The notes below the pieces were generated by a model. It worked only from the letters and a program-made list of their open reading frames with translations. It was not told the DNA's origin and ran no database searches. A stretch of DNA of 64,000 bases from an uncultured Christensenellaceae bacterium. Its GTDB lineage: Bacteria > Bacillota > Clostridia > Christensenellales > Pumilibacteraceae. Where the stretch lies: NCBI GenBank assembly GCA_910586925.1, contig CAJUKG010000010.1:9817-73816 (forward strand), read 5' to 3'. Both the position numbers and the translations under genes were made by a program. Shown here one piece after another: positions 21,215-64,000 of this stretch. The stretch's first letter is position 1. Each line of letters opens with the position of its first letter.

Positions 21215-21412
21215 AAAAAAATCCCGCCTGTGCCGCAGACTTAACCTATTATCAACCCGCGTATAGCAGGTGGGTCGGCTGACGCGGTCGTCTGTCTTCC
21301 CCTGCTTACTTGCGTAAAATTACTGAGGCCCGACATATCATCGCGTACGCGCCATCCCTTTTGATGATTGAGGTTATAAATGAGGTATCGTCTCGTACAC
21401 CGCAGGATGTAC
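21215..21412 (-). ncRNA. Candidate ~200-nt small RNA with its own promoter and T-run; identity unknown (6S-like rod is a hypothesis only)
   Basis: Minus-strand promoter: TTGATT (21445..21440), 17 nt spacer, TATAAT (21422..21417). The 3' end reads ...GGCACAGGCGGGATTTTTTT (T-run 21221..21215). The 5' ATCCTGC can pair with the 3' GCGGGAT, and there are further complementary segments (GGGATGGC..ACGCG with CGCGT..GCCGACCC). There is no credible ORF, and the downstream gene has a separate promoter. Confidence 0.35.
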
Positions 21413-24910: not shown

Positions 24911-26533
24911 TTATTTCTTTTTTCTTTTCGCGCCGTAAGTCTTTGCCGCGGCGATAAACTCGCGGAAGATCGCTTGCGGCTTGGCGGGACGGGACTTGAA
25001 CTCGGGATGATACTGCACGCCGAGATAGAACAGCTTGTCGGTGATCTCCACCGATTCGACAAGATTGCCGTCGGGCGAAATGCCGCCGAGAGTAAGCCCT
25101 GCGGCTTGCATGGGTTCGCGCATGGCGTTATTGAATTCGTAACGGTGACGGTGACGTTCCATGACGGACGCCACGTCCGCACCGTAGCATTTTGCGAGTT
25201 TCGTGTTCGGCTTTATTACGCACTCGTATGCGCCGAGCCGCATAGTGCCGCCCGTGTTCTCGCACCCGACTTGATCTTCCATAATGTCGATCACTTTGTG
25301 CGGGGATGCGGGATCGAATTCGCGGGAATTCGCGTCGGCGATCCCGAGCACGTTACGCGCGTATTCGATGACTATGATCTGCATGCCCAAGCATATGCCG
25401 AAATACGGTTTATCGTTCTCGCGGCAATACTTGGCGGCTGTTATCATGCCTTCTATACCGCGGTCGCCGAATCCGCCCGGCACGATAACGCCGTCGGCGC
25501 AGTCGAGATAGCTCGCGACGGTATCGTCGGTGAGTTTTTCGGCGTCCACCCACTTGAGATTTATTTTAACGCCGTTATGGATACCGCCGTGCGTGAGTGC
25601 CTCTACTACCGAGAGATACGCGTCGAACATCTGCACGTACTTGCCGACGAGCGCGATAGTCACTTCGCCTTTTCTGTCCTTCGCCATTTGCACCATGGCG
25701 CGCCACTCGTCGAGCTGCGGCGGATTGTCGGGAAGATCGAGTTCGCGCGTGACTATATCGCCTATCCCGCTGTCGAGAAGAAGCAGCGGCACTTCGTACA
25801 AAAGATCGGCGTCGCGGTTTTCTATCACGCAATCGGGTTCGATATTGCACGACATTGCGAGCCGTTCTTTGAGTTTTTCGTCGAGCGGCTTGCTCGTGCG
25901 AAGCACTACGAGATTGGGCGAAATGCCGAGCGAGCGCAACGTCTTTACCGAGTGTTGCGTCGGCTTGGTCTTTACCTCGCCGCTCGAAGTGATCGTGGGT
26001 GCGAGCGTCACGTGCACGAACAGACAGTTCTCTCTGCCCACGTCGTTGCTGACCTGACGTATAGCTTCTATAAACGGCAAGCTCTCTATATCGCCGACGG
26101 TGCCGCCTATCTCGGTGATGACGACGTCCGCGTCGATTTTCTTGCCGACCGAATAAATGAACTTTTTGATTTGGCTCGTAATGTGCGGAATGACCTGCAC
26201 CGTTTCGCCGTTGTATACGCCGTCGCGCTCGTTTTGCAGCACGGTGGAATACACTTTGCCGGTAGTGAGGTTGGAAAACTTGTTCAGATTCTCGTCGATA
26301 AACCGCTCATAGTGCCCGAGGTCGAGGTCGGTTTCCGCGCCGTCCTCCGTCACGAACACTTCGCCGTGCTGAAACGGGCTCATCGTTCCGGGGTCGACGT
26401 TGATATACGGATCGAGTTTTTGCGCAATGACCTTAAGCCCCTTTGACTTGAGAATAAGCCCGAGGCTCGCCGCCGTTATGCCCTTGCCGAGTCCGGATAC
26501 GACTCCACCCGTAACAAAAATATACTTTTCCAT
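24911..26533 (-). CDS. pyrG: CTP synthase (canonical copy)
   Basis: [50 protein letters not shown] and VQYHPEF. All catalytic motifs are intact. Confidence 0.93.
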
Positions 26534-40305: not shown

Positions 40306-43300
40306 TCAGAACTCGTCGGGATTAAATCCGTCGGGGCTTGCGGGAGGCGGGTTGCCGCCGTTCGGAGCCGTCGGCTGTGCCGGCGGAACATTGCCCTGTT
40401 GCGGGGGCGGAGTGCTGCCCGATCCCGCGTTCAGCTGCAAGCTGTTCGGCGTGGGATTGTTCGCGCTTCCGCCGAGCATAAGCCCGGGATCGTTGACGGT
40501 CTGCTGCATAGGCGGCAGGTAGCCGAACGATTGATACGGTGCCGAGCCGCCGCTGCCGAGCCGCATCATTTCTTCTTCAAGCTCGATTTCGGCGTTGAGA
40601 AGCGACTCGATCTCTCTGCGCATCTTGCGCTTCTTGCATACGACAACGATTATGACGATGAGCAGTATGATGAACAGCAGTATCGCCGCGACTATGATCC
40701 AGAACCACATCCAGTTCGCTTCGATGAGCGAAATGGTGCTCTCGAACCAAGACTGTTCGGGCGCGTCGTGACACATGACCGTTATGGTCATATCGTACGA
40801 TCTGCCGGAGCTGTCGCTGACCTTGAGCGAAATGTCGGACGAACCGCGTCTGTTGAACTTGAGCAGTATGAACGCTCTGCCACCGTCGGCAGCCGTGTCG
40901 TAATCGAGCAATGCTTCCACTATTACCGACTGCGATGTGACGACAGGCGTGAGGAACGTCATTATGTCGTCTTTATCGGTATCTTCGAACCAATCCTCGG
41001 GATAGACCTTGAGCGTGCGATTCACGGGATCGGTAAGCATATTGACGGTATACTCGTAAACGGTTTTTTCGCCGCCCGCGTCCTTTTTGTATTTAGGCGG
41101 AGTATTGACGGATACCGTGATCGGCAAAATCCTCTTGACCGACACGCTGCCTGCCGCGAACTCCACTTCGAGTTTTACGGAAGCACCCTCGGTGCGGGCG
41201 TAAATGCGCCATTCGTCAATATCCGCGCCGCTTGCCGACGTCAACGCTTGCGTCGAACCGGGAGCGAAAACGGAAAGCTGCGGATTGCCGCCGTCGGTCA
41301 CTTCGGTGATCGACTTGATCGTATAGCCGCGCGCCTTATCGCCGAGCAGATCCTCGGTCGTGACGGTACGCGTAACGCCGTATGCGATGGAAATGGGTTC
41401 AAGCTCGTCGGCTACGTCTTCGAGCGGATCTGCGACCGTGATGTACAGGTTAAGCTCGAACACTTTGCCGTCCTGTATGCCCGCAGCCGAGCCGTCCTCG
41501 TAACCGCTGTCGACGATCGTGAGAGTCACCTTTTGGAAACCGTACAAGCCCGCGACCTGCGTTACGGTGAACAACTGATGCTGCGCGTTGTCGGCTTTCC
41601 AGTCGATATAGCACAGCGTGTCGGAAGTGTATTCGGTGTTGCCTTCCTCGTCGGTGTGCATGAGGTTGGGACCGTACATGATAGGCGCGTCCTCGCCTTC
41701 TTCGTGTCTGTCGTAAACGAGTATCGAGTCGATAAACGCGTAAGTAGGCGTGCGCTCCGCGTACTGCGGATCGTCGGCGCGGTAGTTATCGCCGTTGTCG
41801 TCCGCAATGAAGTCGAGAATACTGAAAGTCTTTACCGCATTGCCGACGTCCTCCTCGGTCGCGTCCTTGCCGAGACCCATGAGCGTGATATGCGTATCAA
41901 TGCCGGGCTTGAGCTTGGGCGCGATATTATCGACGGTCACGTTGATCGTGAGAATATCGGTAACGGCACCGCGCACCGAGTCGCGCAAACGCAGTTGGCA
42001 AGTTCCCACTTCGCCGCGCAGTGTGGACACGCACGTGAACATGATCTTGTCGAGCGTCGTGAGTCCGTACGCATTGCTCGTATCGCTTGTTTCGATATTG
42101 AACAGCGTGACGCCGTTGCCGTTCTTGAGTTTGCCGACTTTGCTGCTGTTGCCCATTTCGTCGACCGAACCCATAAGATTGCCGTCGCTCATTATAAGAC
42201 TCGTTTCGGTCGCGGTATTGAGCAACACGTACTTATCCATATCGACGTCGGCATCATTGATTATATCGGCGATGCGCACGTTGAGTTTGGACCCGCGCTC
42301 GACGGTGGCATTGAGGACATACCCGGTGTCGTCGGTGTACGTGAGCGAATAGCCGAGCCGCAGGATATCCGAAGAATCGGTTACCGTCTTGAGTTCGGGA
42401 ATATCGTTCTCGACACGAACGGTGATCGTGGTTTTGACAAGGTTCTTGTTGTTGGAAATACCCGAGCGCACGCCGATGGTATCCGCGCAGTATATATCCA
42501 CGCTGACGTCGGTATACGATACTTCGTTGCCGTTCGGATCGGGATTGCCCGTAAACACCTTGCGGTTGATCTTAATGGTGATCGACTTGCCGTCGCCCGA
42601 CGGAGTGACCGACAGAACGTCGCCCTTGCCTTTTACGGTTTCGTTTATGCCGCGGAATTCCGCACGGACATAGTTGATCGACTCCAAACCGCCGCTCGTG
42701 CTCGGATTGCGAATGAGGTCGTAATCGTAGAACAAGCCGAGTTCGGAATCCTGCGTGTCGTACAAATTCCAAGTGAGCGAGTCGCCCGCCGTACCCGTAA
42801 ACCGCAGGAACGACGATTCGCGGAGGCGCATTTCGCCTTCTTCGCCGGACGGAACTCTCGGATAGCCGGAGTTGAACGGCGATTCGGCGACCGCGACGAG
42901 CGCGGAGTTGGCAACCGACACGTTTGCAAACGCCGTCTTCATATCCATGGGACGGTCATTCTCGTCTCTGTAATCTTTTACAAGCTCGATATAGAGTTGT
43001 ATGTTCGCAAGCGCGGCATTGTTTTTCTCGGGCGAAATAGTAGCCGAGTTGGGAATGAATTCCAAAGTCTTGCCGTCTGCGGACAGCGACACCGAGAAGA
43101 AGCGCGAAACGTATGTCGCGACCTCGCCGTATCCGGGTTGAATAGACGAACCCTCGACGGAAACGAGCAGGCACGAATCGCGATCGAAATCGTCGCTTGT
43201 GTGACGGATCGGCTCGAAGTTATTCTCGCCGCGTTTGACAAGAAGCGCGTAGACATTGACGTCGTACTTCGCCGACGGCGCAGCGACATCGGAGTCGGAG

Positions 43301-46300
43301 AAAAGTTTCGCGTCGCTTCCCGCCGCAACGAGATCTATCGTAACGGGCTGACCGTCCTTGACATACTCGGCATAGCTCTTAAGCTCGAGCGACAAATCGC
43401 GGTCTTGCGTCGCTATCGTTCTTACCTCGCGAGGTTTGATCTTAACGCGAATGGTTATGAACTCGGACACTGCGCCGTGCATATCCGCTACGCGGAAAGT
43501 GACCGACGAGTACAAGCCCGCGCGGTTCATGTAATCGGTAGCCTTTATAACTATCGAAGTTACGGACTGTTCGGTTTTGCTCTCTACCGATATAGCCGAA
43601 ACGCCTTGCGGGTTGTTGATAGTAAAGCTCGTATTGTCTACGCCCTTGTACACGGACAGATGATATTCGTCGTCGCGGTCCACGTCGGTCATAAAGCCGT
43701 AATCGCCGCCGAGGTCGAATTCCTTCGTTTCGTCGTAATCGAGAGCTATTTCGTAGGTATTGGGAATGACGTTGTGGCTGTCGTCGTACGCCACTTCAAG
43801 CCCCGCGGGAAGATTATTGAGCTTCGCGGTAGGCGCGGTGGACACGACCGAAATATTGATATTGATTTCGACTTTAACGCCCAAACCGTCCTGCAACGTG
43901 ACTGTATACACCGTATTTACAACAGCTTTCGCGGTGACGGTGACGCTCATGGGTCTGCCGACGCTGCCGTCCTCGCAAAGATACATGGCACCCGTCGAAT
44001 ACGAGAACAGATCCACGTGGTTGATATCGGAGAACGTTTTGTAGTCGACGATACGCAACGTACTCGCCGCGTCGTCGCTGCCGATTATAAGCCCGCCGAG
44101 ATGTTTGCTCGCGCTGCTCTCTCCCGAAGAATCGTAGAGAAATGCGGTCGCGAGTTCCGCGGCATTCTTGTCGGGACGCTCGTGCGGCGTGCCGTTGACG
44201 TAATTGTAAACATAGCCGCTGTTGCCCTTCCACGAATTGAATCCGCCGCGCACGTCGCTGTCGAACTTACTGTGGTCTGCCGCGTACAGCGTGAAGCTGT
44301 CGCCCGTGCGCATGACGATGCTGATGGATTCGGATCCGCCGAAAGTATCGCTATTCGCAGTCGGAGCTTCGTTGTTGTACGAAACGGTAAACACTACGGA
44401 CATCGTATTGTCCCGCACACTGTCGGAGAACGTATACATTACGCTGACGGGATTCTTGAACGCGGAGTCAGCCGAGAACATTATCGTGGATTCCGACATG
44501 CCCGAATCCTCGGGAGCGGATCCTATAGTGATCGGCAATTCGCCCGTCGGGTCGATCTTTCTGAACGACGTCGGCATTACGAGGTAATCGCGGGTATACT
44601 TCTCCTCGTCCGTGAAGTTCGCATCGGATACCGAGAACGACGAGCCGTCGAGCTTGATGTCGTTATCGAGCAGCAACGACGATACGTCGATAAAGAAGTC
44701 CGCGCCGCGCGACAGCTTGAACTTGTATTCGGGCACATACGTACCGCCGACGTTTATCGTGTTGATGACGCCTTTATCGTTTTGGAACATTTTGGGGTTG
44801 ATACGAAGCTCGTCGTTGCGTATATACACTTTGAGCACCGTAACGAACCAGAACCCTTCCGTCAACGACGAGCCGTTGACCTCGTCGAAGAACAGGACGC
44901 GGAACGGATAATAAATACCGTTCTTGTCTTCTTTCAGATGATACTCGGCAAGAATGTCCTCGCGCTGTTGAGTAGTAGTGCCCTCGGGGAAAGACAGCTG
45001 CGTCTTGGCTTTGGGAGTAAACTGAATGGAGGACGATCTGCCGTCCTTGGGCGAAACGTCGAAGAACTTGTCGTAACCGGGGTTCGGCACGTACTGTTCT
45101 TTGTACTTATCCATAGAGATCGTTTCGCCGTCTACTTCCACGGTTTCGCCGTAAGATACGTCGTAGTACATCTTGAACGCCGCAGATTTCTGACCGCCGG
45201 AATTGGAATCAATGGTAATATAATCGCGTTCGTCCTTCGACATACCGCCTACTACGTTGCCTTTATCGTCTACGGTAGCCGTGGCGGACGACATGAGGAA
45301 CTTCATGACGTCGCCTTTATCGGCGTCGTCGTATGTGATATAGCAGTCGCCTGTCGGCGTGGGAACGAGGTTGCCGTTATCGTCCTCGACGGGGTTGCCG
45401 TCGCGAAGCACGAGCGTCTTGCCCTGCGTGTCGCTCGTCGTCATGGACAATCTCATCGTATCGGTACCGCTGTCTATCGGCGTTACTACTTCGGTCTCGT
45501 CGACATACTTGAGCGACGGAGCCGCATTCTTGAGAATGATATCCACCTCGGCGTATTCCACGGCACTGCCGATAAGCTGATTGTCGTTGAATGCCGTCGT
45601 TTTGAGCGCGACGGTGAGTTTGAGACGATTGCGCGCGCGCTCGCCGCCCGGTTTTTTCTCGAACGTAAGACCGTATTTATCCTCGCGGTAAATACTCTTG
45701 CCGTTGACGATACTCGTGATCGGGTTGCGGTTAAGACGGGTAGAATCGTCGGAAGTGCTGATCGTGTAACGTTTGTCGTTGAGATACTTGGTCTTATCGC
45801 TCGCGACATAGCTGCCCGTATTCGCTTTGTATCCGATGGTGATATACGGGTTATTATTGAGCGTCGCGCCCGACCAGGTATTGCCGTCTATATCCGAAAG
45901 CGTGAGGTTTTCGAACACGTAACCGAGAGTTTGGGGATTATTGCCCCAGGTAGAGTACATGGAGTCGGAAAGCACGAGGTTGTTCTTGGGATCGAGCGGA
46001 CCCGCCGTCGCGTTCGCGAACGTGACGTGCTCAACGCTCTGACTGTCCGTCGAGGTCGACGCGCGTTTCGGCATAGCGATATAACTAATAGGCACTTCGG
46101 TAACGCCGCCGCCTATGCCCGCAGCTTCTATCTCGATCGGACGGTAATAGAACGCGTTCGACGCGTCGGGATAGCACTTGTAAGTTACCTCTACTTTTTC
46201 CTTTCCTGCGACCGTGCGGGAAATGGTTTTAACGAAATACTGATACTTAAAGTCATCGGCGAACGTAGCCGATTGCAACGTAGTCTGATTTGTAGGGATG

Positions 46301-49300
46301 TCGCCCTCGAACTGATAATTTTTGTCGGTGGCGAAACCGTTATAATCGACGGCGTAAAAAGTATTGCCATTGTCGTCGGTCTTGATCGCGGTGTTGGCTT
46401 CCAGATTACCGTCGGTGCGATAATAAGTATGCATAACGGTAATACCGGGAGATTTGTATTCGTAATCGAAGTTGAGCACCAACGATGCGGACTTACCTGT
46501 CGATTTCACAGTCTTGTCGGCATTGTATACGGGGACGTCATGGTGATTGTCTTTTATGGATATCGCGATCGTGGCGGGACCGTACTGCTCCTCGCTGTTT
46601 CCGCTGTCTACGATCTCGATAGCCCAAAACTGCGTCGTCTTGACGCGTTCGTCGGCGGCTCCGAGTTCGGTAAATACCACATTGCCGTGTTCGTCCGTTT
46701 CGCGCACATAGAATATCACTCGCAAGCTCAAGTGCGTGTTGCCGCTGTTGTCGTTCACGTATGTGGGCGTGTACAAAATCGCGGCGTTCGGATAGCTCGC
46801 AAACATTGCATCGGTCGGTTTTTCGCCAACGGGCTTCACGAGCGCGGCGACCGCGCCGTTTATATTATCGCTCCACTTCAAGGGATTGAGCATTGCGTTC
46901 TCTCTGCCGTCCGTATCGGAGAACAGATACTGTATGTTCGACGCACCTGCGGCTTTAGGATTGGCGTTGTACAATTCTTCGCTGTTGTAGATATACCGCG
47001 CGACGCGAAGCTCGGCTTCATCCTCGTAACCTATCTGCCACGCATAAACGTCGTTCTCGGTATCTTTAAGCGTGAGCGAGTCTGTGACGAAAACAGGTTG
47101 CGCGTTATTCACGTGAATAAGCACGTGCAAATTATCCCATTTCGGTTGCGCGCGGAATCCGTCCTGCACGCCTACCTCGAGGTAAATGGGCACCGAGAAA
47201 ATTTCCGTGGACGAAAGTGCGGTCACCTGCACGACGTCCTCGCCGTATTCGTTCTTGGTGAACTGCGCGTGCGCATACTCGGAGAGAATGTATTTGCCGT
47301 CCGCCGCGCCGACGAATTTTCCGGTGGCTTCGTTATAATCGAGCCGATCGTAATACTCGTCGCCGATCTTGGCTACTATTCTCGCACTGCCCGCGATAAA
47401 CGTCGGGATGTCGCCGTCCTTGTCGTACGCGATCTCGCGCGTCGTGAACATATACGAGTTGCGGACTTTGGTGCCGAGTTCGGTAGTCATGATGTACGGC
47501 TCGACAATGCGCTTATCTTCCTCGTTCTCTTTGGGATGGTTTTTCTCGGTGTTGAGCATAGGCGCGGAGTTGTTGACGACTATCGTAACGAGGCAATCGG
47601 TGCTCGAGAAACCGTCCGTCACGGTGAAGCGCAACTGCACGACCGCCGAAGTGGTACGCGATACGCCGACGATCTTGATGCACGGCACCATGTATTCCGC
47701 ACCGCCCGCGACAACGCACTTATTTTCCGCCGTAGCGGCGATATAACCTGCGTACTGCTCTGCGTTCGCTCTGAAATTGTCGAGATTGGTGAACGAAAGG
47801 TTCTGCAGCTTCACGCCCGTCGCCTCGGTTGCGGGTGCGGACGGCGAAGCAGTATGCGGGATATTGTATTGGTGATTGAGGAACTGAGCAACGCTCGGGA
47901 ATTCCTCGTCGACGGGGTTGGTATTGTACTTGATCGAGCCTGCGTTCATGGCGTTCAAAACGGTATTATCGCAGTCGACGTCGAAATCGTACACCAAATC
48001 GTACGGCGTGATCTGAAGCACGTCGTTGCGCTCTATGTAATAGTTGACAGCCACGGCGTTGATGCTCGGGTTGTACATGAACACGTTTTTGGTGTCGTTG
48101 CTTTTCCTGTTCGCGTTCGCCAAATTGATTTTGTAATCGAACGTCGCGGAGTCGTCGCCCATGCCCTGATACGAACTGCGACGGGCTTGCACCGCACGGT
48201 TGTCGACTTTTATGCACACGCGCACCGTGTTCTTGGCGTCGTGCGAGTCTTTTACCTTGACGTCGAATTGGAAGTATTCCCCGTTCGTCGAACGCTTGGG
48301 CGTGATCTTAAGACCGTAGAACGCGTAGCAGTCGCCGTGTTCGCGCACGCCGAAAGACTCGAGCTGAGTCTTATTCATCGAAAGCCGAGAGAATACCGTT
48401 TTGCTCGCGTACAGCTCGATGCGTTCTACCGTGTAGAATGCCGCGGTGTCGTAAGCATTTATGATATTGTCGATGCTCGTACCGTCGAGCATGACTATAT
48501 CGTTGAGAGCGCGGGTCTTGTCGTTGCCCTCGCCCGAATATATGAACGTATCGGGGTCTATCGTAAACGGCAAAGCGTGGTCCGCGTCTTTATCCGAAGT
48601 ATATTTGTTAAGCGCGTCGTCGGGGCTGCCGATACCTCGCACAACGCCGTCGCTTCCGACATAGCTCACGGGCGTGAGAACGATGCTGCGGCGGGGCTCG
48701 TTTTGCCGCGCGTCGCTGCCGACGCCGTCGTTGGTGACGGGTGCGCCGGGAACGAACGTGTCGTTAAAGTCGAGAGTGAAGTTCGCAACCGTAGGCGTTT
48801 CGGCGGGTTTTGCCGAAGTTACGCGAATGGCTATAGGGAACCAAATGCCGTCGTCGCTCACGTCGGACGGGTCTATGACGCGCACCATAATGTAGAAGTC
48901 GCCGAGCCGTCCCGACTGACCGTACATATACTGCGTCGATGCGCGCGGGGTGAACCTGATCACTTTGTTGCTGTCGAAACTGTACGTAACGGCGGCATTC
49001 GCGGCACCCGAGCTACCCGTCGCGGCGATCAGATCTTTCTTGAATCCCGTCGCGGTTATACCCTCGCCCGACTTGGAAGAAATGTTCTCGCCCGTATCTT
49101 GAACGGACGTTCTGTTATAGTAGTTACTCGGAGTGTTGCCGATCTTGTCGCGAAGCGGCACTTCGATATTGGACGCGTCCACCTGAATATATTCGTTGGT
49201 GGGGATCTTAACGTCGCCCGCGAAGTACGCGTTAAGCGAATTGCCGTCGTCCAAATCCTTGATCATGGTCGAAATATCGAGCGTCACGGACGCGCCGCCC

Positions 49301-51378
49301 GATTCAAGCTCGATATACGGTTCCGCCATGCCTTCGACCATGGTGGACGAAGCGAAGTACGGACGGGTGTTCGCCAAGCGGAACACGAGCTGTACCGCCG
49401 AGTTCTGCGAGCCTATGACCGCTTTTGTGTTGGTTTCGCTCGTCTGCGCATATATCGTCGCACAAACGTAAACCGCGCCGTTGGGTCTGATGTTAGTCGG
49501 TTTAATCGTTATCGAAGGCGCAACGCCCGACGCATAATCAGAACTCGTGTTGTACGAAATACTGTAATATTGCGAATATTGCGAATACGCGGAAAGCGGG
49601 GTTATCGTGCGGAACCCGACTTTATCGTAATTCGTATCGAGATCGTCGAAAATGTCTTTCGCGTAAATGGTATACCCCGCCGTATCGGTAGGTGCGATAG
49701 GCTTGGGAAGGAATACCGTTTTTATATGCGAACCGTCGGTGTAATTGGGATTGTAAATACTGCCGGGCGTACCCATATAGTTGCCGCCGACATTATTGGA
49801 AGTAGCATCGCCGTAACGGTATTCGTAAGATTTACCGCCCGAAGAATATGTGTGCGTCGAGGCATCCGCCTTCGGCGTGATCGCCCTGTCGTTGACTACG
49901 AGATAGAAAAGTATCGTACTCGTACCGCGCGTCGCCGTAGCACCGAAATCATCGCGCATTTTTACGTAAAGCGGAAGTTTGCCGTTTGTCGAGGCATAAC
50001 CGTCGCCCGCACGCGGGTATTTTTTGATCTCCGTTATGCGAAGCGTGGACTTACTCTGCCAATTCCAGCTTAAATATGAACTCGCGGAAACAGTGCAACC
50101 CGAATTGAGCCACAAGCCCGCATTCGCGCTCGGCAAGGCGTCGAAATTGCCGCTCGTGCCATTGGAATAGAATACGTTATTGGTGTTGCCGCCCGAAATA
50201 TTGGTGTAATCGGGGTCGTATGCGATCGTACTCGCCGCTATGTCTATATTGCGCGACGTGCCGCGATAGTAGTTCGCGGACGAGGCGTTCTGAATTGTCG
50301 TGCCGCCGTTTCTCGCCGTCGGACCTTGGTTGACCGAAACGACCTGAATTGTCGCCTTACCGTTGCCCGATTGGGTACCGTTACTGCCACCGCCAGAAAG
50401 TCCCGATTTGATGTGACCGGAACCGCCGCCGCCGCCCGTTCTGCCGTCCGCACCCGAGCCGTTGGAGTCGCCGCCGCCACCGCCGCCGCCGTACCAGCCG
50501 CCACCGCCGCCGCCGCCTGCTTCGTAACCGCCCGAGTAGCTGGCACCGCCGTGACCGAAATAGCCGGCTTGACCTGTAACAGGACGACAGTCGGAAGCAC
50601 TTGCGCCTCTGCCTGCGCTACCGCCTTGGTTTGATTTGCCGCCGCTTGCCTGATATCCGCCGCCTGTAATATAACCGCCCGACGACGAGCCGCCGTTATT
50701 GTTCGCGCCGCCGCCGTAACCGCCCTGACCGTAAGAACCGCCATGCGCGTTTGTGGTAGAACCGCCGCCGCCGCCCGCAACGACAAGCACTTTCGCTTGG
50801 TTTGTCGTAGAGCTCAAAGCATCGAGAGTGCCCTGCGCAAGAGCCATATGCGTCGCGCCGCCGCCGCCGCCGCCGCCGTTTGCACGGTCGACACTGCCGC
50901 CGCCGTTATAGCCGCCGCTTTTTGCGCCGCTCGAACCCGACGCTCCTTGCCCGCCGACATATATGTATATATACTCGCCCGAAGTGGAAGTGACGTTATA
51001 TGTGGCATAGGTATAACCGCCTTTGCCGCCGAGACAGGAATTCACATAATACCCGCCCTGTGCGCCCCAGACTTGAAGCGTATACTGACCGCGCGGCAGT
51101 TTAATTTGGTAATAGCCGCTCGTCTTAAACGAATAGTTTATAACGTCGCCGTTCTTCAGCGCACCCGGTGCAGTTTGGTCGTTCTGAAGATTGGAGTACG
51201 TCGTACTCGTCAAAGCGTCGCCACCGCCTACTTCGTCGCGGTCGACGATCGGCGATTCGACGTTGATGCACAACGCACACACGATCGCCACCGCTATCGC
51301 GGTGAAGATCGAGGCGACAAGCACTATCACCCGTCGCAAGATATTCGTATTACCGGTTCCGTTCGTATGATTTTTCAT
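40306..51378 (-). CDS. Giant surface protein (3690 aa): N-terminal TM/signal anchor, ALK/LTK-like glycine-rich domain, many cadherin-like/Ig-like modules, C-terminal TM, Pro-rich cytoplasmic tail
   Basis: GAGGTGA RBS and ATG at 51378. N-terminal hydrophobic stretch: ILRRVIVLVASIFTAIAVAIVCALCINV. The glycine-rich domain covers aa ~78-350. At least 13 acidic loops of the cadherin/dystroglycan-type occur (YDPDYTN, DDLDTNYD, DLDDGNSL, IDPDTF, YDFDVDCDN, YDKDGDIPTF, FSDTDGRE, YDDADKGDVM, LDNDIKLDG, TDVDRDDEY, INDADVDMD, ADDNGDNY, FEDTDKDDIMTF). The C-terminal hydrophobic stretch WMWFWIIVAAILLFIILLIVIIVVVC is followed by KKRKMRRE and then 100 further residues. Confidence 0.9.
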   Translation of the reverse strand: MKNHTNGTGNTNILRRVIVLVASIFTAIAVAIVCALCINVESPIVDRDEVGGGDALTSTTYSNLQNDQTAPGALKNGDVINYSFKTSGYYQIKLPRGQYTLQVWGAQGGYYVNSCLGGKGGYTYATYNVTSTSGEYIYIYVGGQGASGSSGAKSGGYNGGGSVDRANGGGGGGGATHMALAQGTLDALSSTTNQAKVLVVAGGGGGSTTNAHGGSYGQGGYGGGANNNGGSSSGGYITGGGYQASGGKSNQGGSAGRGASASDCRPVTGQAGYFGHGGASYSGGYEAGGGGGGGWYGGGGGGGDSNGSGADGRTGGGGGSGHIKSGLSGGGSNGTQSGNGKATIQVVSVNQGPTARNGGTTIQNASSANYYRGTSRNIDIAASTIAYDPDYTNISGGNTNNVFYSNGTSGNFDALPSANAGLWLNSGCTVSASSYLSWNWQSKSTLRITEIKKYPRAGDGYASTNGKLPLYVKMRDDFGATATRGTSTILFYLVVNDRAITPKADASTHTYSSGGKSYEYRYGDATSNNVGGNYMGTPGSIYNPNYTDGSHIKTVFLPKPIAPTDTAGYTIYAKDIFDDLDTNYDKVGFRTITPLSAYSQYSQYYSISYNTSSDYASGVAPSITIKPTNIRPNGAVYVCATIYAQTSETNTKAVIGSQNSAVQLVFRLANTRPYFASSTMVEGMAEPYIELESGGASVTLDISTMIKDLDDGNSLNAYFAGDVKIPTNEYIQVDASNIEVPLRDKIGNTPSNYYNRTSVQDTGENISSKSGEGITATGFKKDLIAATGSSGAANAAVTYSFDSNKVIRFTPRASTQYMYGQSGRLGDFYIMVRVIDPSDVSDDGIWFPIAIRVTSAKPAETPTVANFTLDFNDTFVPGAPVTNDGVGSDARQNEPRRSIVLTPVSYVGSDGVVRGIGSPDDALNKYTSDKDADHALPFTIDPDTFIYSGEGNDKTRALNDIVMLDGTSIDNIINAYDTAAFYTVERIELYASKTVFSRLSMNKTQLESFGVREHGDCYAFYGLKITPKRSTNGEYFQFDVKVKDSHDAKNTVRVCIKVDNRAVQARRSSYQGMGDDSATFDYKINLANANRKSNDTKNVFMYNPSINAVAVNYYIERNDVLQITPYDLVYDFDVDCDNTVLNAMNAGSIKYNTNPVDEEFPSVAQFLNHQYNIPHTASPSAPATEATGVKLQNLSFTNLDNFRANAEQYAGYIAATAENKCVVAGGAEYMVPCIKIVGVSRTTSAVVQLRFTVTDGFSSTDCLVTIVVNNSAPMLNTEKNHPKENEEDKRIVEPYIMTTELGTKVRNSYMFTTREIAYDKDGDIPTFIAGSARIVAKIGDEYYDRLDYNEATGKFVGAADGKYILSEYAHAQFTKNEYGEDVVQVTALSSTEIFSVPIYLEVGVQDGFRAQPKWDNLHVLIHVNNAQPVFVTDSLTLKDTENDVYAWQIGYEDEAELRVARYIYNSEELYNANPKAAGASNIQYLFSDTDGRENAMLNPLKWSDNINGAVAALVKPVGEKPTDAMFASYPNAAILYTPTYVNDNSGNTHLSLRVIFYVRETDEHGNVVFTELGAADERVKTTQFWAIEIVDSGNSEEQYGPATIAISIKDNHHDVPVYNADKTVKSTGKSASLVLNFDYEYKSPGITVMHTYYRTDGNLEANTAIKTDDNGNTFYAVDYNGFATDKNYQFEGDIPTNQTTLQSATFADDFKYQYFVKTISRTVAGKEKVEVTYKCYPDASNAFYYRPIEIEAAGIGGGVTEVPISYIAMPKRASTSTDSQSVEHVTFANATAGPLDPKNNLVLSDSMYSTWGNNPQTLGYVFENLTLSDIDGNTWSGATLNNNPYITIGYKANTGSYVASDKTKYLNDKRYTISTSDDSTRLNRNPITSIVNGKSIYREDKYGLTFEKKPGGERARNRLKLTVALKTTAFNDNQLIGSAVEYAEVDIILKNAAPSLKYVDETEVVTPIDSGTDTMRLSMTTSDTQGKTLVLRDGNPVEDDNGNLVPTPTGDCYITYDDADKGDVMKFLMSSATATVDDKGNVVGGMSKDERDYITIDSNSGGQKSAAFKMYYDVSYGETVEVDGETISMDKYKEQYVPNPGYDKFFDVSPKDGRSSSIQFTPKAKTQLSFPEGTTTQQREDILAEYHLKEDKNGIYYPFRVLFFDEVNGSSLTEGFWFVTVLKVYIRNDELRINPKMFQNDKGVINTINVGGTYVPEYKFKLSRGADFFIDVSSLLLDNDIKLDGSSFSVSDANFTDEEKYTRDYLVMPTSFRKIDPTGELPITIGSAPEDSGMSESTIMFSADSAFKNPVSVMYTFSDSVRDNTMSVVFTVSYNNEAPTANSDTFGGSESISIVMRTGDSFTLYAADHSKFDSDVRGGFNSWKGNSGYVYNYVNGTPHERPDKNAAELATAFLYDSSGESSASKHLGGLIIGSDDAASTLRIVDYKTFSDINHVDLFSYSTGAMYLCEDGSVGRPMSVTVTAKAVVNTVYTVTLQDGLGVKVEININISVVSTAPTAKLNNLPAGLEVAYDDSHNVIPNTYEIALDYDETKEFDLGGDYGFMTDVDRDDEYHLSVYKGVDNTSFTINNPQGVSAISVESKTEQSVTSIVIKATDYMNRAGLYSSVTFRVADMHGAVSEFITIRVKIKPREVRTIATQDRDLSLELKSYAEYVKDGQPVTIDLVAAGSDAKLFSDSDVAAPSAKYDVNVYALLVKRGENNFEPIRHTSDDFDRDSCLLVSVEGSSIQPGYGEVATYVSRFFSVSLSADGKTLEFIPNSATISPEKNNAALANIQLYIELVKDYRDENDRPMDMKTAFANVSVANSALVAVAESPFNSGYPRVPSGEEGEMRLRESSFLRFTGTAGDSLTWNLYDTQDSELGLFYDYDLIRNPSTSGGLESINYVRAEFRGINETVKGKGDVLSVTPSGDGKSITIKINRKVFTGNPDPNGNEVSYTDVSVDIYCADTIGVRSGISNNKNLVKTTITVRVENDIPELKTVTDSSDILRLGYSLTYTDDTGYVLNATVERGSKLNVRIADIINDADVDMDKYVLLNTATETSLIMSDGNLMGSVDEMGNSSKVGKLKNGNGVTLFNIETSDTSNAYGLTTLDKIMFTCVSTLRGEVGTCQLRLRDSVRGAVTDILTINVTVDNIAPKLKPGIDTHITLMGLGKDATEEDVGNAVKTFSILDFIADDNGDNYRADDPQYAERTPTYAFIDSILVYDRHEEGEDAPIMYGPNLMHTDEEGNTEYTSDTLCYIDWKADNAQHQLFTVTQVAGLYGFQKVTLTIVDSGYEDGSAAGIQDGKVFELNLYITVADPLEDVADELEPISIAYGVTRTVTTEDLLGDKARGYTIKSITEVTDGGNPQLSVFAPGSTQALTSASGADIDEWRIYARTEGASVKLEVEFAAGSVSVKRILPITVSVNTPPKYKKDAGGEKTVYEYTVNMLTDPVNRTLKVYPEDWFEDTDKDDIMTFLTPVVTSQSVIVEALLDYDTAADGGRAFILLKFNRRGSSDISLKVSDSSGRSYDMTITVMCHDAPEQSWFESTISLIEANWMWFWIIVAAILLFIILLIVIIVVVCKKRKMRREIESLLNAEIELEEEMMRLGSGGSAPYQSFGYLPPMQQTVNDPGLMLGGSANNPTPNSLQLNAGSGSTPPPQQGNVPPAQPTAPNGGNPPPASPDGFNPDEF

Positions 51379-51623: not shown

Positions 51624-51708
51624 GCGGGGGTGGCGAAATTGGCAGACGCGCAGGTCTCAGAAGCCTGTGGGTAACACCGTACGAGTTCAAGTCTCGTCCT
51701 CCGCACCA
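51624..51708 (+). tRNA. tRNA-Leu (anticodon CAG), CCA encoded
   Basis: Hand-folded. The acceptor stem is GCGGGGG/CCTCCGC (one G-T pair). The D stem is GCG/CGC with a GG loop. The anticodon stem is CAGGT/GCCTG with loop CT-CAG-AA. There is a long variable arm (class II). The T arm is ACGAG-TTCAAGT-CTCGT, followed by discriminator A and CCA. Confidence 0.9.
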
Positions 51709-59228: not shown

Positions 59229-60992
59229 ATGACAAAAACAAAGAGCAAAAACACTCGAAAGCGCGGCATGCTGAAACGGTTCGTGCGCTATTACAAGCCG
59301 CACAAAACGCTGTTTATCATCGACATGGTGTGCGCGTTTACTATTTCTGTCTTTAACCTCGTTTATCCCTACGTCACCAAAGAGATAATCAATAATTACG
59401 TGCCCAATAAACTGCTGACCATGCTGCTTGCCGCGGCGGGGTTTCTGTTCGGATTTTATCTGTTGAAAGCGGGGCTGAATTACGTTCTGCACTGTTGGGG
59501 ACATATCGTCGGCGTGCGCATACAGTCGGACATGCGACGGGAATTGTTCACCCACCTGCAAAAACTGCCGTTCGCATATTTCGATGAGAATAAAACGGGC
59601 GTGATCATGAGCCGCATGACTAACGATCTGTTTCAGATCGCCGAGCTTGCGCACCACGGTCCCGAGGACGTGTTTCTGTCCGCGATCACTCTCGTCGGCG
59701 CGTTCGCGGTGCTCGGCACGATCAACATTTATCTCGCGCTCATAGTGTTCGCGCTGATTCCGTTCTTTGTAGTTTACGCTCTGCTTATCCGCAAAAAGAT
59801 GAACGCCGTTTACAAGCAAACGCGGATCGCCCAAGGCGAAGTAAACGCCGATATAGAAAGCGCGATTTCAGGCATGCGCGTATCGCGGGCTTATACCGCA
59901 AAATCTCACGAGGAGAAAAAATTCGACGCGGGCAACGACGTGTTCGTGGAAAGCCGTTGCAAACAGTTCAAACTGCTCGGCAAGTTCCACTCGACAATGA
60001 CTTTTTTCACCGACTTTCTATACTTCGCGGTACTTCTCGCGGGCGGGCTGTTTTTCTATTACGGAATAATCGACGTCGGCGACTTCACGGCGTTCGTGCT
60101 GTACATATCCACCCTGATCGCGCCGATACGCACGCTTATAACCATATACGACCAGATCCAAGAGGGCGCGACGGGTTTCAAGCGGTTCTGCGAGATCATG
60201 GACGAACAGCCCGAAACCGACCGCGACGGCGCGCTCTCCCCCGAGCATATCGACGGGCATATAGTGTTCGATAACGTAACGTTCGGCTATAAAAACGACG
60301 ACGATGCCGCGAAAGTAGTGAGCGACTTCTCGCTCGATATTCCCGCAGGCAAAACCGTCGCGCTCGTCGGACCGTCGGGCGGCGGCAAAACGACGCTGTG
60401 CCACCTAATTCCGCGGTTTTATGAGATCGACGGCGGCAGTATTTCGATCGACGGACACGACATTCGCGACATGACCCGCGACACGCTCCGCAAGAACATA
60501 GGCATAGTACAGCAGGACGTATTTCTGTTTAACGGCACGATCAAAGAGAATATCGCATACGGCGACTTCGACGCGACCGACGAACAAATCGCCGAAGCCG
60601 CGCGGCAAGCGAATATCCACGACTATATTACGACGCTTCCCAAGGGTTACGACACCGAAGTCGGAGAGCGCGGCGTAAAGCTCTCGGGCGGACAGAAACA
60701 GCGCATATCCATTGCGCGCGCGTTCCTCAAGAATCCGCCCGTTCTGATCCTCGACGAGGCGACTTCCGCACTCGACAACGCGACGGAAATGCAGATCCAA
60801 GACGCGCTCGGCAAGCTCATGGGCGGCAGAACGACGCTCGTCGTCGCCCACCGCCTGTCCACAGTGAAAAACGCCGACGAAATAATCGTCATCACGCAGA
60901 ACGGCGTGGAAGAACGCGGCACCCACGAATTGCTCATGGACAAGAACGGCATTTATAAACAGTTGTACGAATATCAGTTCAAGAATTTATAA
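59229..60992 (+). CDS. ABC transporter, fused permease/ATP-binding protein (MsbA/multidrug-exporter type)
   Basis: Six-TM N-terminal half. Walker A GPSGGGKTT, signature LSGGQKQR, Walker B ILDEATSALD. Confidence 0.9.
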   Translation: MTKTKSKNTRKRGMLKRFVRYYKPHKTLFIIDMVCAFTISVFNLVYPYVTKEIINNYVPNKLLTMLLAAAGFLFGFYLLKAGLNYVLHCWGHIVGVRIQSDMRRELFTHLQKLPFAYFDENKTGVIMSRMTNDLFQIAELAHHGPEDVFLSAITLVGAFAVLGTINIYLALIVFALIPFFVVYALLIRKKMNAVYKQTRIAQGEVNADIESAISGMRVSRAYTAKSHEEKKFDAGNDVFVESRCKQFKLLGKFHSTMTFFTDFLYFAVLLAGGLFFYYGIIDVGDFTAFVLYISTLIAPIRTLITIYDQIQEGATGFKRFCEIMDEQPETDRDGALSPEHIDGHIVFDNVTFGYKNDDDAAKVVSDFSLDIPAGKTVALVGPSGGGKTTLCHLIPRFYEIDGGSISIDGHDIRDMTRDTLRKNIGIVQQDVFLFNGTIKENIAYGDFDATDEQIAEAARQANIHDYITTLPKGYDTEVGERGVKLSGGQKQRISIARAFLKNPPVLILDEATSALDNATEMQIQDALGKLMGGRTTLVVAHRLSTVKNADEIIVITQNGVEERGTHELLMDKNGIYKQLYEYQFKNL

Positions 60993-60999
60993 CGCGCCT

Positions 61000-61027
61000 C
61001 CCCGCTCCGCAACGAGCGGGGTTTTTA
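61000..61027 (+). terminator. Rho-independent terminator of the ABC gene
   Basis: CCCCGCTC-cgcaac-GAGCGGGG followed by TTTTTAATT. Confidence 0.7.
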
Positions 61028-61243
61028 ATTGCCGATCTTATTGCGGGCAATCCCCGAAATCGCAATCGGGATCGTGGTCGTTGACAACTCCCACCGCTTG
61101 CAGGTAAGCGTATATTATCGTCGACCCGACGAACTTCATAAAGTAAAATAATAATCGCGCAAGACCCTGTTTGCAAGATATTGCGCGATATATTTACGCT
61201 ATGATTCCGCACGGCATGCCGAGCGGATTTATATTCGATCGCT

Positions 61244-62806
61244 TTAGCAAATAACTTTGATGAATTCCGAGAATATCGGGTTGGTATTGAGCAGTCGCGA
61301 ATGATATTCGGGACTGAATATCGTGCCGATAAAGAATTTGTTTGTCGGGATCTCGTACGCTTCGGGTACGCCCGTCGGCGAATGTGCCGAGAACACCAAA
61401 CCGTTCTTCAGGAAAAGCTGTTCGTACGTATCCGAAAAATCGTATCTGTGACGGTGACGCTCGCTAACCGTTTGCTCGCCGTAAATCTTACTTAAATACG
61501 TGCCCGGCGTGATCATCGTGGGGAACGCGCCTTTCTTGAGCATGGGCGGCTCGACGCTGCGCACGACGCTGTAAGGCGTATCGGTATTGAATTCCTGCGA
61601 ATCGGCGTCCGCCATGCCGCACACGTCGCGTGCGAACTCGACAAGCCCCGCCTGTGCGCCGAGTCCTATAAGCAGGCACGGCACGTCTTTCTCGCGCGCA
61701 TATTTAGCCGCGGCGATCTTGCCGTCGAATCCGCGCACGCCGAAGCCCGGCGCGATAACTATTCCCGCGTACCCGTCGAGCACGCTCGGGTTTTCCGCAA
61801 CCGACTCCGCCGATACGAGCGCGATGTCTATTGCGATATTCTTGAGCAGCCCCGCCGTCTTGAGCGCGTCCATGAGCGATTGATACGCCGTCGCTTTCTC
61901 GACGTACTTGCCGACGAGCGCGATATTGATGCGTTTATCGGAATTCGCGGCACTCTCGGCACGCTCGCACATTTCCCGCCACGCGTCGAGCTTGGGTTCG
62001 CGCACTTCCATTTTGAGCTTGGTAAGCGCGACGCCCTCGAAGTTTTGCGCATGCAGTCGCAACGGGATCCGGTACAGATTATCAGTCGTGACGCTCTCTA
62101 TTATCGACTTGCAGTCCACGTTGCAGAACAGCGACAGCTTTTTGATCGCCGCCTCGTCGAGCGCGTAGTCCGACCTGCAAACGATTATGTCGGGCAGTAT
62201 GCCTATGTTTTGCAGTTCTTTGACCGAGTTCTGCGTCGGTTTCGTCTTATGCTCGCCGCTCATTTCGATGACGGGCACATATGTAACGTGCACGTACACC
62301 GAATTGCCCTTGCCGAGCGCGACCTTACATTGCCGTATAGCCTCGAGATACGGGTGGTTCTCTATATCGCCGACGACACCGCCGATCTCGCACACTACGA
62401 CGTCCGTTTCGGGCTTGTCGAGCCGCTTGAGCGTGCGAATGATCTCGCCCGTGATATGCGGAACGACCTGAACGGACTCGCCGCCGTACGCGCCCTCGCG
62501 CTCGCGTTGAATGACCGCCGAATATATCTTGCCGCTCGTAATGTTGCTGTTTTCGGACAGGTTCTGGTCCAAAAACCGCTCGTAGTGTCCTATAACGAGA
62601 TCGCCCTCTCCGCCGTCCTCGGTTACGAACACTTCGCCGTGCTGATACGGACTCAAGTACAGCGAGTCAACATTGAAGTACGGGTCGAACTTCACCATAT
62701 CGACCGTGTAACCCTGCGCCTTGATGAGCATAGCCATGCTCGCCGCGGTAATGCCTTTGCCGAGTCCCGATACGACCCCGCCTGTGATAAATATGAATTT
62801 TGACAT
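61244..62806 (-). CDS. CTP-synthase paralog with degenerate active sites (glutaminase Cys and His absent)
   Basis: It aligns over the full length with the copy at 24911..26533 ([31 protein letters not shown]). However, GICLGMQ becomes LIGLGAQ (Gly codon at 61664..61666), YHPEF becomes FSPEY (Ser codon at 61313..61315), DLDLG becomes DLVIG (Val codon at 62594..62596), and DPGTMSP becomes DSLYLSP. Confidence 0.85.
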   Translation of the reverse strand: MSKFIFITGGVVSGLGKGITAASMAMLIKAQGYTVDMVKFDPYFNVDSLYLSPYQHGEVFVTEDGGEGDLVIGHYERFLDQNLSENSNITSGKIYSAVIQREREGAYGGESVQVVPHITGEIIRTLKRLDKPETDVVVCEIGGVVGDIENHPYLEAIRQCKVALGKGNSVYVHVTYVPVIEMSGEHKTKPTQNSVKELQNIGILPDIIVCRSDYALDEAAIKKLSLFCNVDCKSIIESVTTDNLYRIPLRLHAQNFEGVALTKLKMEVREPKLDAWREMCERAESAANSDKRINIALVGKYVEKATAYQSLMDALKTAGLLKNIAIDIALVSAESVAENPSVLDGYAGIVIAPGFGVRGFDGKIAAAKYAREKDVPCLLIGLGAQAGLVEFARDVCGMADADSQEFNTDTPYSVVRSVEPPMLKKGAFPTMITPGTYLSKIYGEQTVSERHRHRYDFSDTYEQLFLKNGLVFSAHSPTGVPEAYEIPTNKFFIGTIFSPEYHSRLLNTNPIFSEFIKVIC

Positions 62807-62839
62807 AATGTAAGCTGAAAGCCTTCCTCCTGTCGTATT

Positions 62840-64000
62840 TTACTTATGAACGGAAAAACCGATTTCCTTGAGTTTCTTTGCGTTGTACTCGACGACGTCG
62901 AGCAGTCTGTCGAATATCCTCTGCGCGTCCGCGCGTTCGGGCAGCGACCGCGAAGCATTGCTGTCGGTATTGTCCGAGTGCGCGAAGAAATTGCGTTGCG
63001 AGAAATACTCGGTATAAAGCGACACAAGCACTTCGGGATATATAACGCTGTCTATGCGCCGCAAATACCCGCTCTTGAGCACGTACCTGCCGCTGTCGTC
63101 CTTGTCGAACGCTTGACCTATCATCTTGACATTTATATTCTCCGCGCTTTGCAGGTCGAACACGAACCGTTCCAAACCGCGGAATGCGGGCACGAGCAAC
63201 ACCGAATAGTCGGAAAGATGCAAGTCTTTTTGATCGAAGTCGTGTATGCCGTACGAAAAATCTATCCGCGACTGCTCCGACAAAAATCCGTATGCCGTCG
63301 GCAACCGCTTCTTGAGCTTGTTTTGCACGTCGGACACTTTGTTCCTGCCGCGAGCGGGATTGCCGCCGTCCGACTTTTCCACATAGTTCTCGAGCGCGGA
63401 CGAATAATCGCTGTCGTGACTGACCTGCGCCATGACCTCGCCGAAAAGCTCCGAACGCTTGCCCTGAAGCTGTAAAGTCATGCGCTTTGTCGCATACCGC
63501 AAAATCACCTTTTGCCCGCTGCCGTCGGTCACCGTGTACGCCTTGAGCTCCTGCGGCGTGCCGCCGAACTCGACGCCGTCCAAAATGACCGTCTTGCCGT
63601 AATCGCGCAACCTTCTGACCGCGCCGCCGAGCGCGTCGGGCGGATAGTTCTTTACCGAATATCCGTTCTTGTATTCGGGCAGTTTGTCCTGTTTCGCGCC
63701 GAGTTCCTCGCGCGCCGCAACGTCCGACTTTTTGGGTCTGCCGCGACCGCGCTTTTGCTGTTCGCCTGCGGGCGAATTTTCTTGCGGCGGGTTTTGCTGT
63801 TGCGATTTATTCGGCGACGCGTTTTCCTGCGGTTTGTTTTCCGACTTTTTGGGTCTGCCGCGTCCGCGTTTTTGCTGTTCGCCCGATTGCGCGGGTTGCT
63901 GCGCAGACTGCTGTTTTGTTTGTTGCTGTCCGCCGATCTGCGGCTTGTCCTGCGATACCGACGTGCGCGTGGATATCTTGATCGCGGTCTTGGGCGTTTT
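62840..64000 (-). CDS. RnlA/LsoA-like HEPN-domain protein with an N-terminal AT-hook region (5' end outside the window)
   Basis: The track ORF 62840..63610 begins at a TTG, but the frame stays open to nt 64000, reading KTPKTAIKIS...GEQQKRGRGRPKKSENKPQ...GEQQKRGRGRPKKSDVAAREE.... A TBP-like module follows (KVILRYATKRMTLQLQGKRSELFG), then a helical C-terminal domain with LVPAFRGLERFV and QRNFFAH (R-x4-H, nt 62978..62995). The family call comes from motif memory, not a search. Confidence 0.65.
   Translation of the reverse strand, partial: KTPKTAIKISTRTSVSQDKPQIGGQQQTKQQSAQQPAQSGEQQKRGRGRPKKSENKPQENASPNKSQQQNPPQENSPAGEQQKRGRGRPKKSDVAAREELGAKQDKLPEYKNGYSVKNYPPDALGGAVRRLRDYGKTVILDGVEFGGTPQELKAYTVTDGSGQKVILRYATKRMTLQLQGKRSELFGEVMAQVSHDSDYSSALENYVEKSDGGNPARGRNKVSDVQNKLKKRLPTAYGFLSEQSRIDFSYGIHDFDQKDLHLSDYSVLLVPAFRGLERFVFDLQSAENINVKMIGQAFDKDDSGRYVLKSGYLRRIDSVIYPEVLVSLYTEYFSQRNFFAHSDNTDSNASRSLPERADAQRIFDRLLDVVEYNAKKLKEIGFSVHK

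Follow-up and report, generated by a model that had tools for sequence, protein, structure and literature searches.

To our knowledge, endoribonucleases of the RnlA family are known solely as toxins that are restrained by small antitoxins. RNases of the wider HEPN group have repeatedly been coupled to modules that bind nucleoside triphosphates (NTPs), as in PrrC, RloC, RNase L, Ire1 and Las1-Grc3. All five of these have been placed in the HEPN superfamily (PMC3710099). RnlA itself needs the residues Arg255, Glu258, Arg318 and His323 for activity, which hinges on a switch between two dimer forms that is exploited by RnlB (PMC8266594). In CTP synthase, catalysis at the ATP site has been assigned to Lys18, Lys40, Asp72, Glu140 and Gly143, and the Drosophila counterpart of Asp72 contacts ATP (PMC8325340). 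Here we investigate a locus at the end of a 64,000-nucleotide stretch of DNA from an uncultured Christensenellaceae bacterium of the Pumilibacteraceae (contig CAJUKG010000010.1; hereafter the window). At this locus a gene for an RNase of the RnlA/LsoA type (gene 1) is followed directly by a gene for a paralog of CTP synthase (gene 2) that is, as far as its residues tell, damaged at both of its active sites.

Both genes, and all of the features described within them, are on the minus strand. Gene 2 (61244..62806) is an open reading frame of 520 codons with an ATG start. Gene 1 (62840..>64000) was recognised from its reading frame, translation and Pfam match; it is cut by the window edge at 64000, which leaves its 3' 1161 nt (386 codons plus the stop codon at 62840..62842) inside and its 5' 747 nt outside. 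The spacer is exactly 33 nt (62807..62839), as had been stated in an initial annotation made from the letters of this DNA, and it contains an AGGAGG at 62826..62831. A terminator scan found no terminator-like site on the coding strand between the two genes. The initial annotation had also called for recovery of the missing 5' end of gene 1, and this has been achieved with a contig of the same species (L001), which was reached via the exact gene 2 protein and matches the window at 100% over the last 3001 nt. The complete gene 1 product, read on that contig (L001:8060-9967), has 635 residues, so 249 N-terminal residues, including the first TBP-like domain, are absent from the window.

The gene 1 product belongs to the RnlA/LsoA family of HEPN RNases. 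The Pfam model RnlA-toxin_DBD (PF19034) matches it with 33.1 bits for the window fragment and 31.8 bits for the full-length protein, against a cut-off of 27. In a phmmer search of the PDB sequences it matches LsoA (5hy3, E = 6.9e-5) in an alignment that spans the second TBP-like domain (TBP2) and HEPN and brings the R-x4-H motifs of the two proteins into line. An AlphaFold2 model of the part encoded by 62840..63700 has a mean predicted local distance difference test score (pLDDT) of 88.8. Ten PDB structures match this model in Foldseek with E <= 0.001 and every one of them is RnlA or LsoA, the best being an RnlA NRD-HEPN fragment (7aex; template modelling scores 0.67/0.70, E = 3.4e-9). The model of a full-length homolog (P0013, pLDDT 81.7) consists of two beta-alpha-beta4-alpha domains of the same topology, a disordered linker between them and then the HEPN domain, and it aligns across the whole of RnlA with an E value of about 1e-10. 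Pfam, phmmer and Foldseek therefore agree with the initial description of gene 1 as an RnlA-like HEPN protein with a TBP-like module, and their matches are far stronger than chance would give.

The order of parts in the gene 1 protein is TBP1, a disordered net-basic linker, TBP2 and HEPN. TBP2, which is called NRD in RnlA, is encoded at 63416..63661 and was delimited with AlphaFold2, Foldseek against 7aex and phmmer against LsoA; the stretch TLQLQGKRSELFG of the product is encoded at 63440..63478. The HEPN (DBD) ribonuclease domain, delimited with Pfam (PF19034) and Foldseek, is encoded at 62864..63406. Two motifs carry the equivalents of the four RnlA catalytic residues. In the FRGLERF motif (63164..63184), Arg523 and Glu526, the counterparts of RnlA Arg255 and Glu258, are invariant in both family alignments, A1 and A2. 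The QRNFFAH motif (62978..62998) is the R-N-x3-H of the HEPN domain, with Arg585 and His590 corresponding to RnlA Arg318 and His323. Would the R-x4-H be conserved among homologs, as the initial annotation had asked? It is invariant in A1, and R-N-x3-H was found in 73 of 73 family members. With all four residues invariant in the family alignments, gene 1 has the look of a divergent RnlA/LsoA-type endoribonuclease with its catalytic residues intact, and RNase activity is predicted.

The gene 1 protein contains two AT-hooks, both RGRGRPKK, which were seen in the sequence and with Pfam. AT-hook 1 (63845..63868) is in the disordered net-basic linker and AT-hook 2 is at 63728..63751; the Pfam AT_hook model scores 19.9 bits on the full-length protein against a cut-off of 17.4. 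The hooks had been described before and both are present, but the AT-hook core is found in only 25 of 71 family proteins, all within the clade of the window, and is thus a trait of one clade and not of the family. A net basic linker is found across the family (2391 Lys plus Arg versus 1441 Asp plus Glu in 12,390 residues). A profile search of 1.84 billion representatives returned 89 clusters at E <= 1e-30 and 335 in all at E <= 1e-3. The first set is followed by a gap, with proteins of the classical RnlA/LsoA size (about 350 residues) appearing at an E value of about 1e-19, and this gap indicates that the relatives of gene 1 are a small, well-separated subfamily. Some of these relatives have been labelled 'RnlA family toxin' by PGAP. 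At one locus (L082:7528-9038) the RnlA-like gene is in two open reading frames of 377 and 122 codons, perhaps through a frameshift or an error of assembly, or because it is a pseudogene, and the paralog downstream of it is intact.

Gene 2 matches two Pfam families, CTP_synth_N (E = 3.7e-110) in its synthetase (amidoligase, ALase) domain at 62009..62800 and, weakly, GATase (E = 2.5e-16) in a degenerate GATase domain at 61256..61939. This is the combination that the initial annotation had expected of a profile search. The protein is 45% identical to the PyrG encoded in the same window. That canonical pyrG (24911..26533, minus strand), identified with Pfam and by alignment, is outside the module and serves here as the comparator; as previously noted it is intact, with Asp72, Cys379, His515 and the GGTMRLG motif all present. 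The residues of gene 2 were read from an alignment to five solved CTP synthases and the window pyrG, and E. coli numbering is used for the canonical positions. The glutaminase nucleophile Cys379 is replaced by Gly381 (LLIGLGAQ versus FGICLGMQ; 61664..61666) and the triad residue His515 is replaced by Ser498 (FSPEY versus YHPEF; 61313..61315). The claim that the glutaminase triad has been destroyed therefore stands for Cys and His, but not for the triad Glu (Glu517), which is kept in gene 2 and across the paralog family. A second lesion had been overlooked. It is in the synthetase site, where Val71 (62594..62596) takes the place of Asp72, for which a catalytic role at the ATP site is predicted. 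Lys18, Lys40, Glu140 and Gly143 of the synthetase catalytic set are kept and Asp72 alone is lost. The GGTMRLG lid has been deleted and the GTM motif of the ammonia path (residues 50 to 52) has been replaced. The P-loop and the residues that contact UTP/CTP are kept, and the GDIE (within GG(T/V)VGDIE) and KTKPTQ motifs are invariant.

These changes are those of a family. Of the best 120 database matches, about 105 clusters combine Val72 (in one case Met) with Gly379, and these clusters keep Lys18, Lys40, Glu/Asp140, Asp147, Glu149, Lys187, Lys189, Gln192 and Glu517. Canonical CTP synthases come later in the same match list and retain Asp, Cys and His. The nucleophile position is Gly in every paralog examined bar one, and the position of His515 is variable (S, N, H, R or Q). 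Relative to ALase identity, GATase identity is lower in the paralogs (ratio 0.69) than in canonical enzymes (0.86). The GATase domain of the paralogs is thus relaxed but clearly maintained, and the paralog family is under purifying selection. Judged by its residues, gene 2 is a CTP synthase derivative that is damaged at both active sites, that is, a pseudoenzyme. The protein has a score far above the cut-off of the NCBIfam CTP synthase model and its source label is 'CTP synthase', which makes the pseudoenzyme invisible in annotation.

Two relatives of gene 2 differ from this description. The paralog at L047:10163-11737 is the sole linked one with a nucleophile Cys (ICLGA), and its triad His is still Asn. 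The protein P0228, from termite-gut contigs (L086:6001-8359, also L087), is degenerate in that Cys is replaced by Gly, His by Ser and Glu by Gln. It was rejected as a member of the paralog family, as Asp72 is kept and its context is different. A gene for a DUF6414 protein follows 35 nt after it, and a large serine recombinase is encoded 4 kb upstream. P0228 and the DUF6414 protein may be a second, independent pairing of a dead CTP synthase with an uncharacterised protein.

Is the pairing of gene 1 and gene 2 peculiar to this genome? A scan for RnlA-like loci in one genome per species gave 80 loci. Nearly all of the hosts are gut metagenome-assembled genomes labelled Clostridia, Clostridiales or Christensenella-like; the cultured hosts are Anaerocaecibacter muris and Pumilibacter muris (Pumilibacteraceae). 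A CTP synthase homolog is directly downstream of the RnlA-like gene and on the same strand in 49 of the 80 species loci, mostly with a gap of 17 to 120 nt. Two distant paralogs, P0229 and P0215 (48 to 51% identity), likewise sit right behind an RnlA-like gene, and at P0215 the pair is still together although the upstream neighbours differ from the usual ones. The RNase gene was directly upstream in all 51 of the paralog neighbourhoods read (the 49 species loci and the two distant ones), and no Val72/Gly379 paralog without an RNase gene was seen among them. In a neighbour-joining tree of the RNase, two large clades are made up of linked loci, which also occur here and there in a third. The RNase-paralog linkage is tight and long-lived. 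The neighbourhood survey proposed in the initial annotation has therefore found the HEPN gene conserved beside the paralog, with the two genes co-occurring in many related genomes.

Two loci have other genes in or beside the place of the paralog. L026 is the only locus with an insertion between the RNase gene and the paralog; the inserted gene (L026:10004-11830) encodes a radical-SAM/SPASM protein of 609 residues. Its identification as a viperin, from a PADLOC pVip match of 38 bits, was rejected since the Pfam match is to generic radical-SAM/SPASM. At L032:9131-10957 the slot behind the RnlA-like gene is filled by the gene for a TIR_2 protein (Pfam E = 7.9e-11), with no PADLOC match. This protein is also of 609 residues, and a kinship with the L026 insert was considered and rejected as the sequences are dissimilar.

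The surroundings of the pair are those of a core-genome locus. Housekeeping synteny around it is conserved in at least 80 species. The upstream flank consists of glyQS, a membrane protein gene, coaX, hom and the gene for a large Ig-like surface protein, after which come the RNase gene and the paralog; the downstream flank consists of a short variable stretch, an ABC transporter gene, purA and a BcrAD/BadFG fusion. In another clade, murB, a PHP-family protein gene, whiA, dnaE and pfkA come after the RNase gene. The G+C content of the locus is unremarkable. No relatives were found in IMG/VR, where 78 pattern matches gave zero confirmed ones, and a phage collection contained no relative of the RNase. 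A plasmid collection gave a single remote RnlA-family match (26.6% identity), on a Bacillus megaplasmid. Gene 1, gene 2 and two family homologs had no match in PADLOC-DB 2.0 at E <= 1. The locus looks like a fixed, vertically inherited chromosomal feature, not a mobile toxin-antitoxin or anti-phage module. The headline of the initial annotation, a candidate toxin/defence pair, is therefore not borne out, given the housekeeping synteny, the lack of phage or viral relatives and of a PADLOC match in these searches, and the repeated absence of the 'antitoxin' from its slot.

A strong terminator had been described as setting the two genes apart from their housekeeping neighbours. The hairpin at 61000..61021, found by scan and in the sequence, does mark the end of the locus, but it is on the plus strand, where it serves as intrinsic terminator for the ABC-transporter gene that converges on the pair (59229..60992). 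For the minus strand a T-tract is lacking, and the hairpin is no terminator of that strand. A promoter scan upstream of gene 1 and of gene 2 gave nothing convincing. An Rfam scan of the window and of L001 found no leader or riboswitch at the RNase/paralog locus; its only matches were to a 6S RNA and a tRNA elsewhere. The 6S RNA gene is at 21217..21411 on the minus strand (RF00013, 56.9 bits against a cut-off of 46.4). The tRNA gene (51624..51705, plus strand) is just past a giant open reading frame of 3690 codons (40306..51378, minus strand), for the product of which a glycine-rich ALK_LTK_GRD Pfam match was recorded.

The surface protein encoded right upstream of the RnlA-like gene has about 1100 to 1150 residues, with a signal peptide, weak Ig-like matches and a C-terminal membrane anchor. 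It was found at L001:4273-7722, which is past the end of the window, and at 61 related loci. The gap between it and the RnlA-like gene is 337 nt in L001, and its position is kept in most species. On the other side, the stretch between the paralog and the ABC transporter gene varies by species (L008, L010, L011, L015, L018 and L009); it contains genes for Bro-N, DUF2310, YpsA/SLOG-like, XRE-family HTH and DUF3885 proteins and a BspA-type leucine-rich-repeat surface protein, and the window counterpart (61022..61243) is empty. This stretch looks like a local insertion hot-spot.

What might such a pair do? RnlA family membership, intact catalytic residues, the double lesion of the paralog and the conserved adjacency are established. 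Our preferred reading, to which we would give somewhat less than an even chance, is that the pair is a chromosomal operon in which a nucleotide-binding pseudoenzyme regulates a chromosomally fixed HEPN RNase. If this is so, the pseudoenzyme would retain the binding of ATP and UTP/CTP and would serve as a ligand-sensing regulatory subunit. It would interact physically with the RNase and regulate it by controlling a switch between a resting dimer and an active dimer. The cleavage of RNA would thereby track pyrimidine-nucleotide status, with the TBP-like domains and the basic linker tethering the RNase to nucleic acid. This regulatory-partner model is the most economical one because of the dimer switch of RnlA and the precedent of HEPN RNases that are governed by NTP-binding modules. 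A more particular proposal is possible, although we are doubtful of it: the pseudo-CTP-synthase may sense the pools of ATP, UTP and CTP, and possibly glutamine, and toggle the RNase so that bulk RNA decay is coupled to pyrimidine homeostasis, or it may act as a chromosomally fixed abortive-infection trigger that detects a disturbance of the nucleotide pools caused by phage. The initial annotation had offered the CTP-synthase-like protein as a nucleotide-sensing partner, a regulator or an antitoxin. The sensing and regulatory roles are those that we favour; the role of antitoxin is disfavoured by the branches that have no paralog at the RNase locus.

Several observations weigh against the regulatory partnership. 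About 20 species, on several separate branches, have no paralog in the slot although there is room for one; at some of these loci the paralog is cleanly missing between the RNase gene and purA. Absence was judged at the RNase locus itself. The R-N-x3-H is kept in the RNases of all of these loci, and an intact RNase gene with no adjoining paralog in about 20 species suggests that the RNase is not strictly dependent on the paralog. As gene order is conserved over the whole neighbourhood, the adjacency could partly be inherited synteny and not function. The NCBIfam CTP synthase equivalog model scores gene 2 at 648 bits against a cut-off of 308, and the change from Asp72 to Val may lower activity without ending it, or may allow other chemistry. 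The distance from the AGGAGG in the spacer to the ATG of gene 2, 19 nt, is above the usual.

Could the locus instead be a type II toxin-antitoxin or abortive-infection module that protects against phage, in which the RnlA-like protein is the toxin and the CTP-synthase-like protein, in the place of RnlB, either acts as the antitoxin or senses changes in nucleotides that phage induce? An anti-phage toxin-antitoxin function is known for the RnlA/LsoA family (PMC3710099, PMC8266594). The gene order is also the matching one, with the toxin first, the partner second and a short gap; the PGAP name given to some members points the same way, as do the variable stretch of accessory genes just downstream and the TIR-domain gene that occupies the paralog slot of one species. 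But core-genome synteny in at least 80 species, with a divergence that fits vertical descent, speaks against it, as do the lack of viral-contig or phage relatives beyond one remote plasmid match, the lack of PADLOC matches and the absence of any small RnlB-like open reading frame at the locus. The putative antitoxin is gone from the slot on several branches with all of the catalytic residues of the RNase kept, which is hard to square with an essential antitoxin, and we consider this explanation unlikely. Inherited gene order alone, in which two unrelated housekeeping genes would be adjacent through descent and not functionally coupled, would account for the conserved order of the whole region and for the RNase gene without a paralog in about 20 species. 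It does not sit well with 51 of 51 paralogs directly behind the RNase gene, on the same strand and with short gaps, with a linkage that spans about 50% sequence divergence and several rearrangements of the flanks, or with an insertion between the genes at one locus only; we judge it very improbable.

Other explanations concern the paralog more than the RNase. In CTP synthases both the tetramer interface and the shared UTP/CTP site belong to the synthetase domain, and it is established in principle that dead paralogs can regulate their active counterparts, as does the S-adenosylmethionine decarboxylase (AdoMetDC) prozyme of trypanosomatids. By analogy the paralog might co-assemble with PyrG in mixed tetramers or filaments and tune CTP synthesis, its adjacency to the RNase gene being inherited order or co-regulation only. 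There is an intact pyrG in the same window, the synthetase domain is the better conserved half of the paralog, and the ligand-contact residues have been kept where catalytic ones have been lost. This pyrG is not adjoining, though, but 35 kb away, the pair persists where both the upstream and the downstream neighbours differ, and the paralog was never found away from the RNase gene in the 51 neighbourhoods; such a regulator of PyrG seems improbable to us. Alternatively, the paralog may have altered chemistry, either as a CTP synthase that depends on ammonia or as an ATP-dependent amidoligase that acts on another nucleophile or on uridine in RNA, in which case it might act on the products or substrates of the RNase. 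The retention of the P-loop, Lys40, Glu140, GG(T/V)VGDIE and KTKPTQ, the high NCBIfam score and the purifying selection on the family would suit an enzyme. Against this, the family has Val throughout in place of Asp72, which has been assigned to ATP catalysis, neither the GTM motif nor the GGTMRLG lid is left, and why an ammonia-only enzyme should retain a degenerate GATase domain is not obvious. An active enzyme of this kind is, in our estimate, quite improbable.

No account of the pair came up in literature searches on RnlA with CTP synthase, on HEPN with PyrG and on inactive CTP synthase paralogs, in line with the initial annotation, which knew of no such system. Two things are new: the type of putative partner that this RnlA-family RNase has, and the clade of CTP synthase pseudoenzymes; the RNase family itself was already known. 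If the regulatory partnership is true, the roles of the RnlA family extend to chromosomally fixed ones, a metabolic pseudoenzyme is able to govern the activity of these RNases, which gain a new class of partner, and the CTP synthase fold gains a new function. This bacterial pseudoenzyme clade of about 105 clusters is currently auto-annotated as 'CTP synthase', which matters for the metabolic reconstruction of these gut Clostridia. The pairing is experimentally accessible in the cultured hosts Anaerocaecibacter muris CLA-AA-M11 and Pumilibacter muris CLA-AA-M08.

The closest described systems are the RNase LS toxin-antitoxin pairs of E. coli, RnlA-RnlB and LsoA-LsoB. Gene 1 shares with RnlA and LsoA the layout of TBP1, TBP2 (NRD) and HEPN (DBD) and the same four catalytic residues, an Arg-x2-Glu pair and an Arg-x4-His, and in rnlAB and lsoAB, as here, the RNase gene comes first with the partner gene immediately after it. 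The sequence identity to the gene 1 protein is about 15%. In the gene 1 family, unlike in RnlA and LsoA, TBP1 is separated from TBP2 by some 40 to 300 residues of disordered basic linker, which bears AT-hooks in the clade of the window. The partner here is a CTP synthase derivative of 520 residues, whereas that of rnlAB and lsoAB is the small antitoxin RnlB or LsoB, and unlike those mobile systems the locus is a vertically inherited part of the core genome. It thus has neither the small adjoining antitoxin gene nor the patchy, mobile distribution by which rnlAB and lsoAB are recognised.

Gene 2 has the two-domain fold of canonical PyrG together with the P-loop, Lys40, Glu140, GDIE and KTKPTQ. 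It differs from PyrG in having Gly for Cys379, a variable residue for His515 and Val for Asp72, in the loss of the GTM motif and the GGTMRLG lid, and in that its family was always linked to an RnlA-like gene in the neighbourhoods read. Of the features of a CTP synthase, the two-domain architecture and the contact motifs are present, and the glutaminase triad and the synthetase catalytic set are incomplete. A functional analogy can be drawn with PrrC and RloC (NTPase domain), RNase L and Ire1 (pseudokinase/kinase) and Las1-Grc3, in all of which a dimerisation-dependent HEPN RNase is combined with a nucleotide-binding and often impaired module. The module here derives from a metabolic amidoligase and is a polypeptide of its own, without homology to the NTP-binding domains of those proteins, and its coupling to the RNase would be by analogy. 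The prozymes, such as the AdoMetDC prozyme of trypanosomatids, resemble gene 2 as crippled paralogs under purifying selection beside an active enzyme, but here the genomic linkage is to the RNase gene and not to pyrG.

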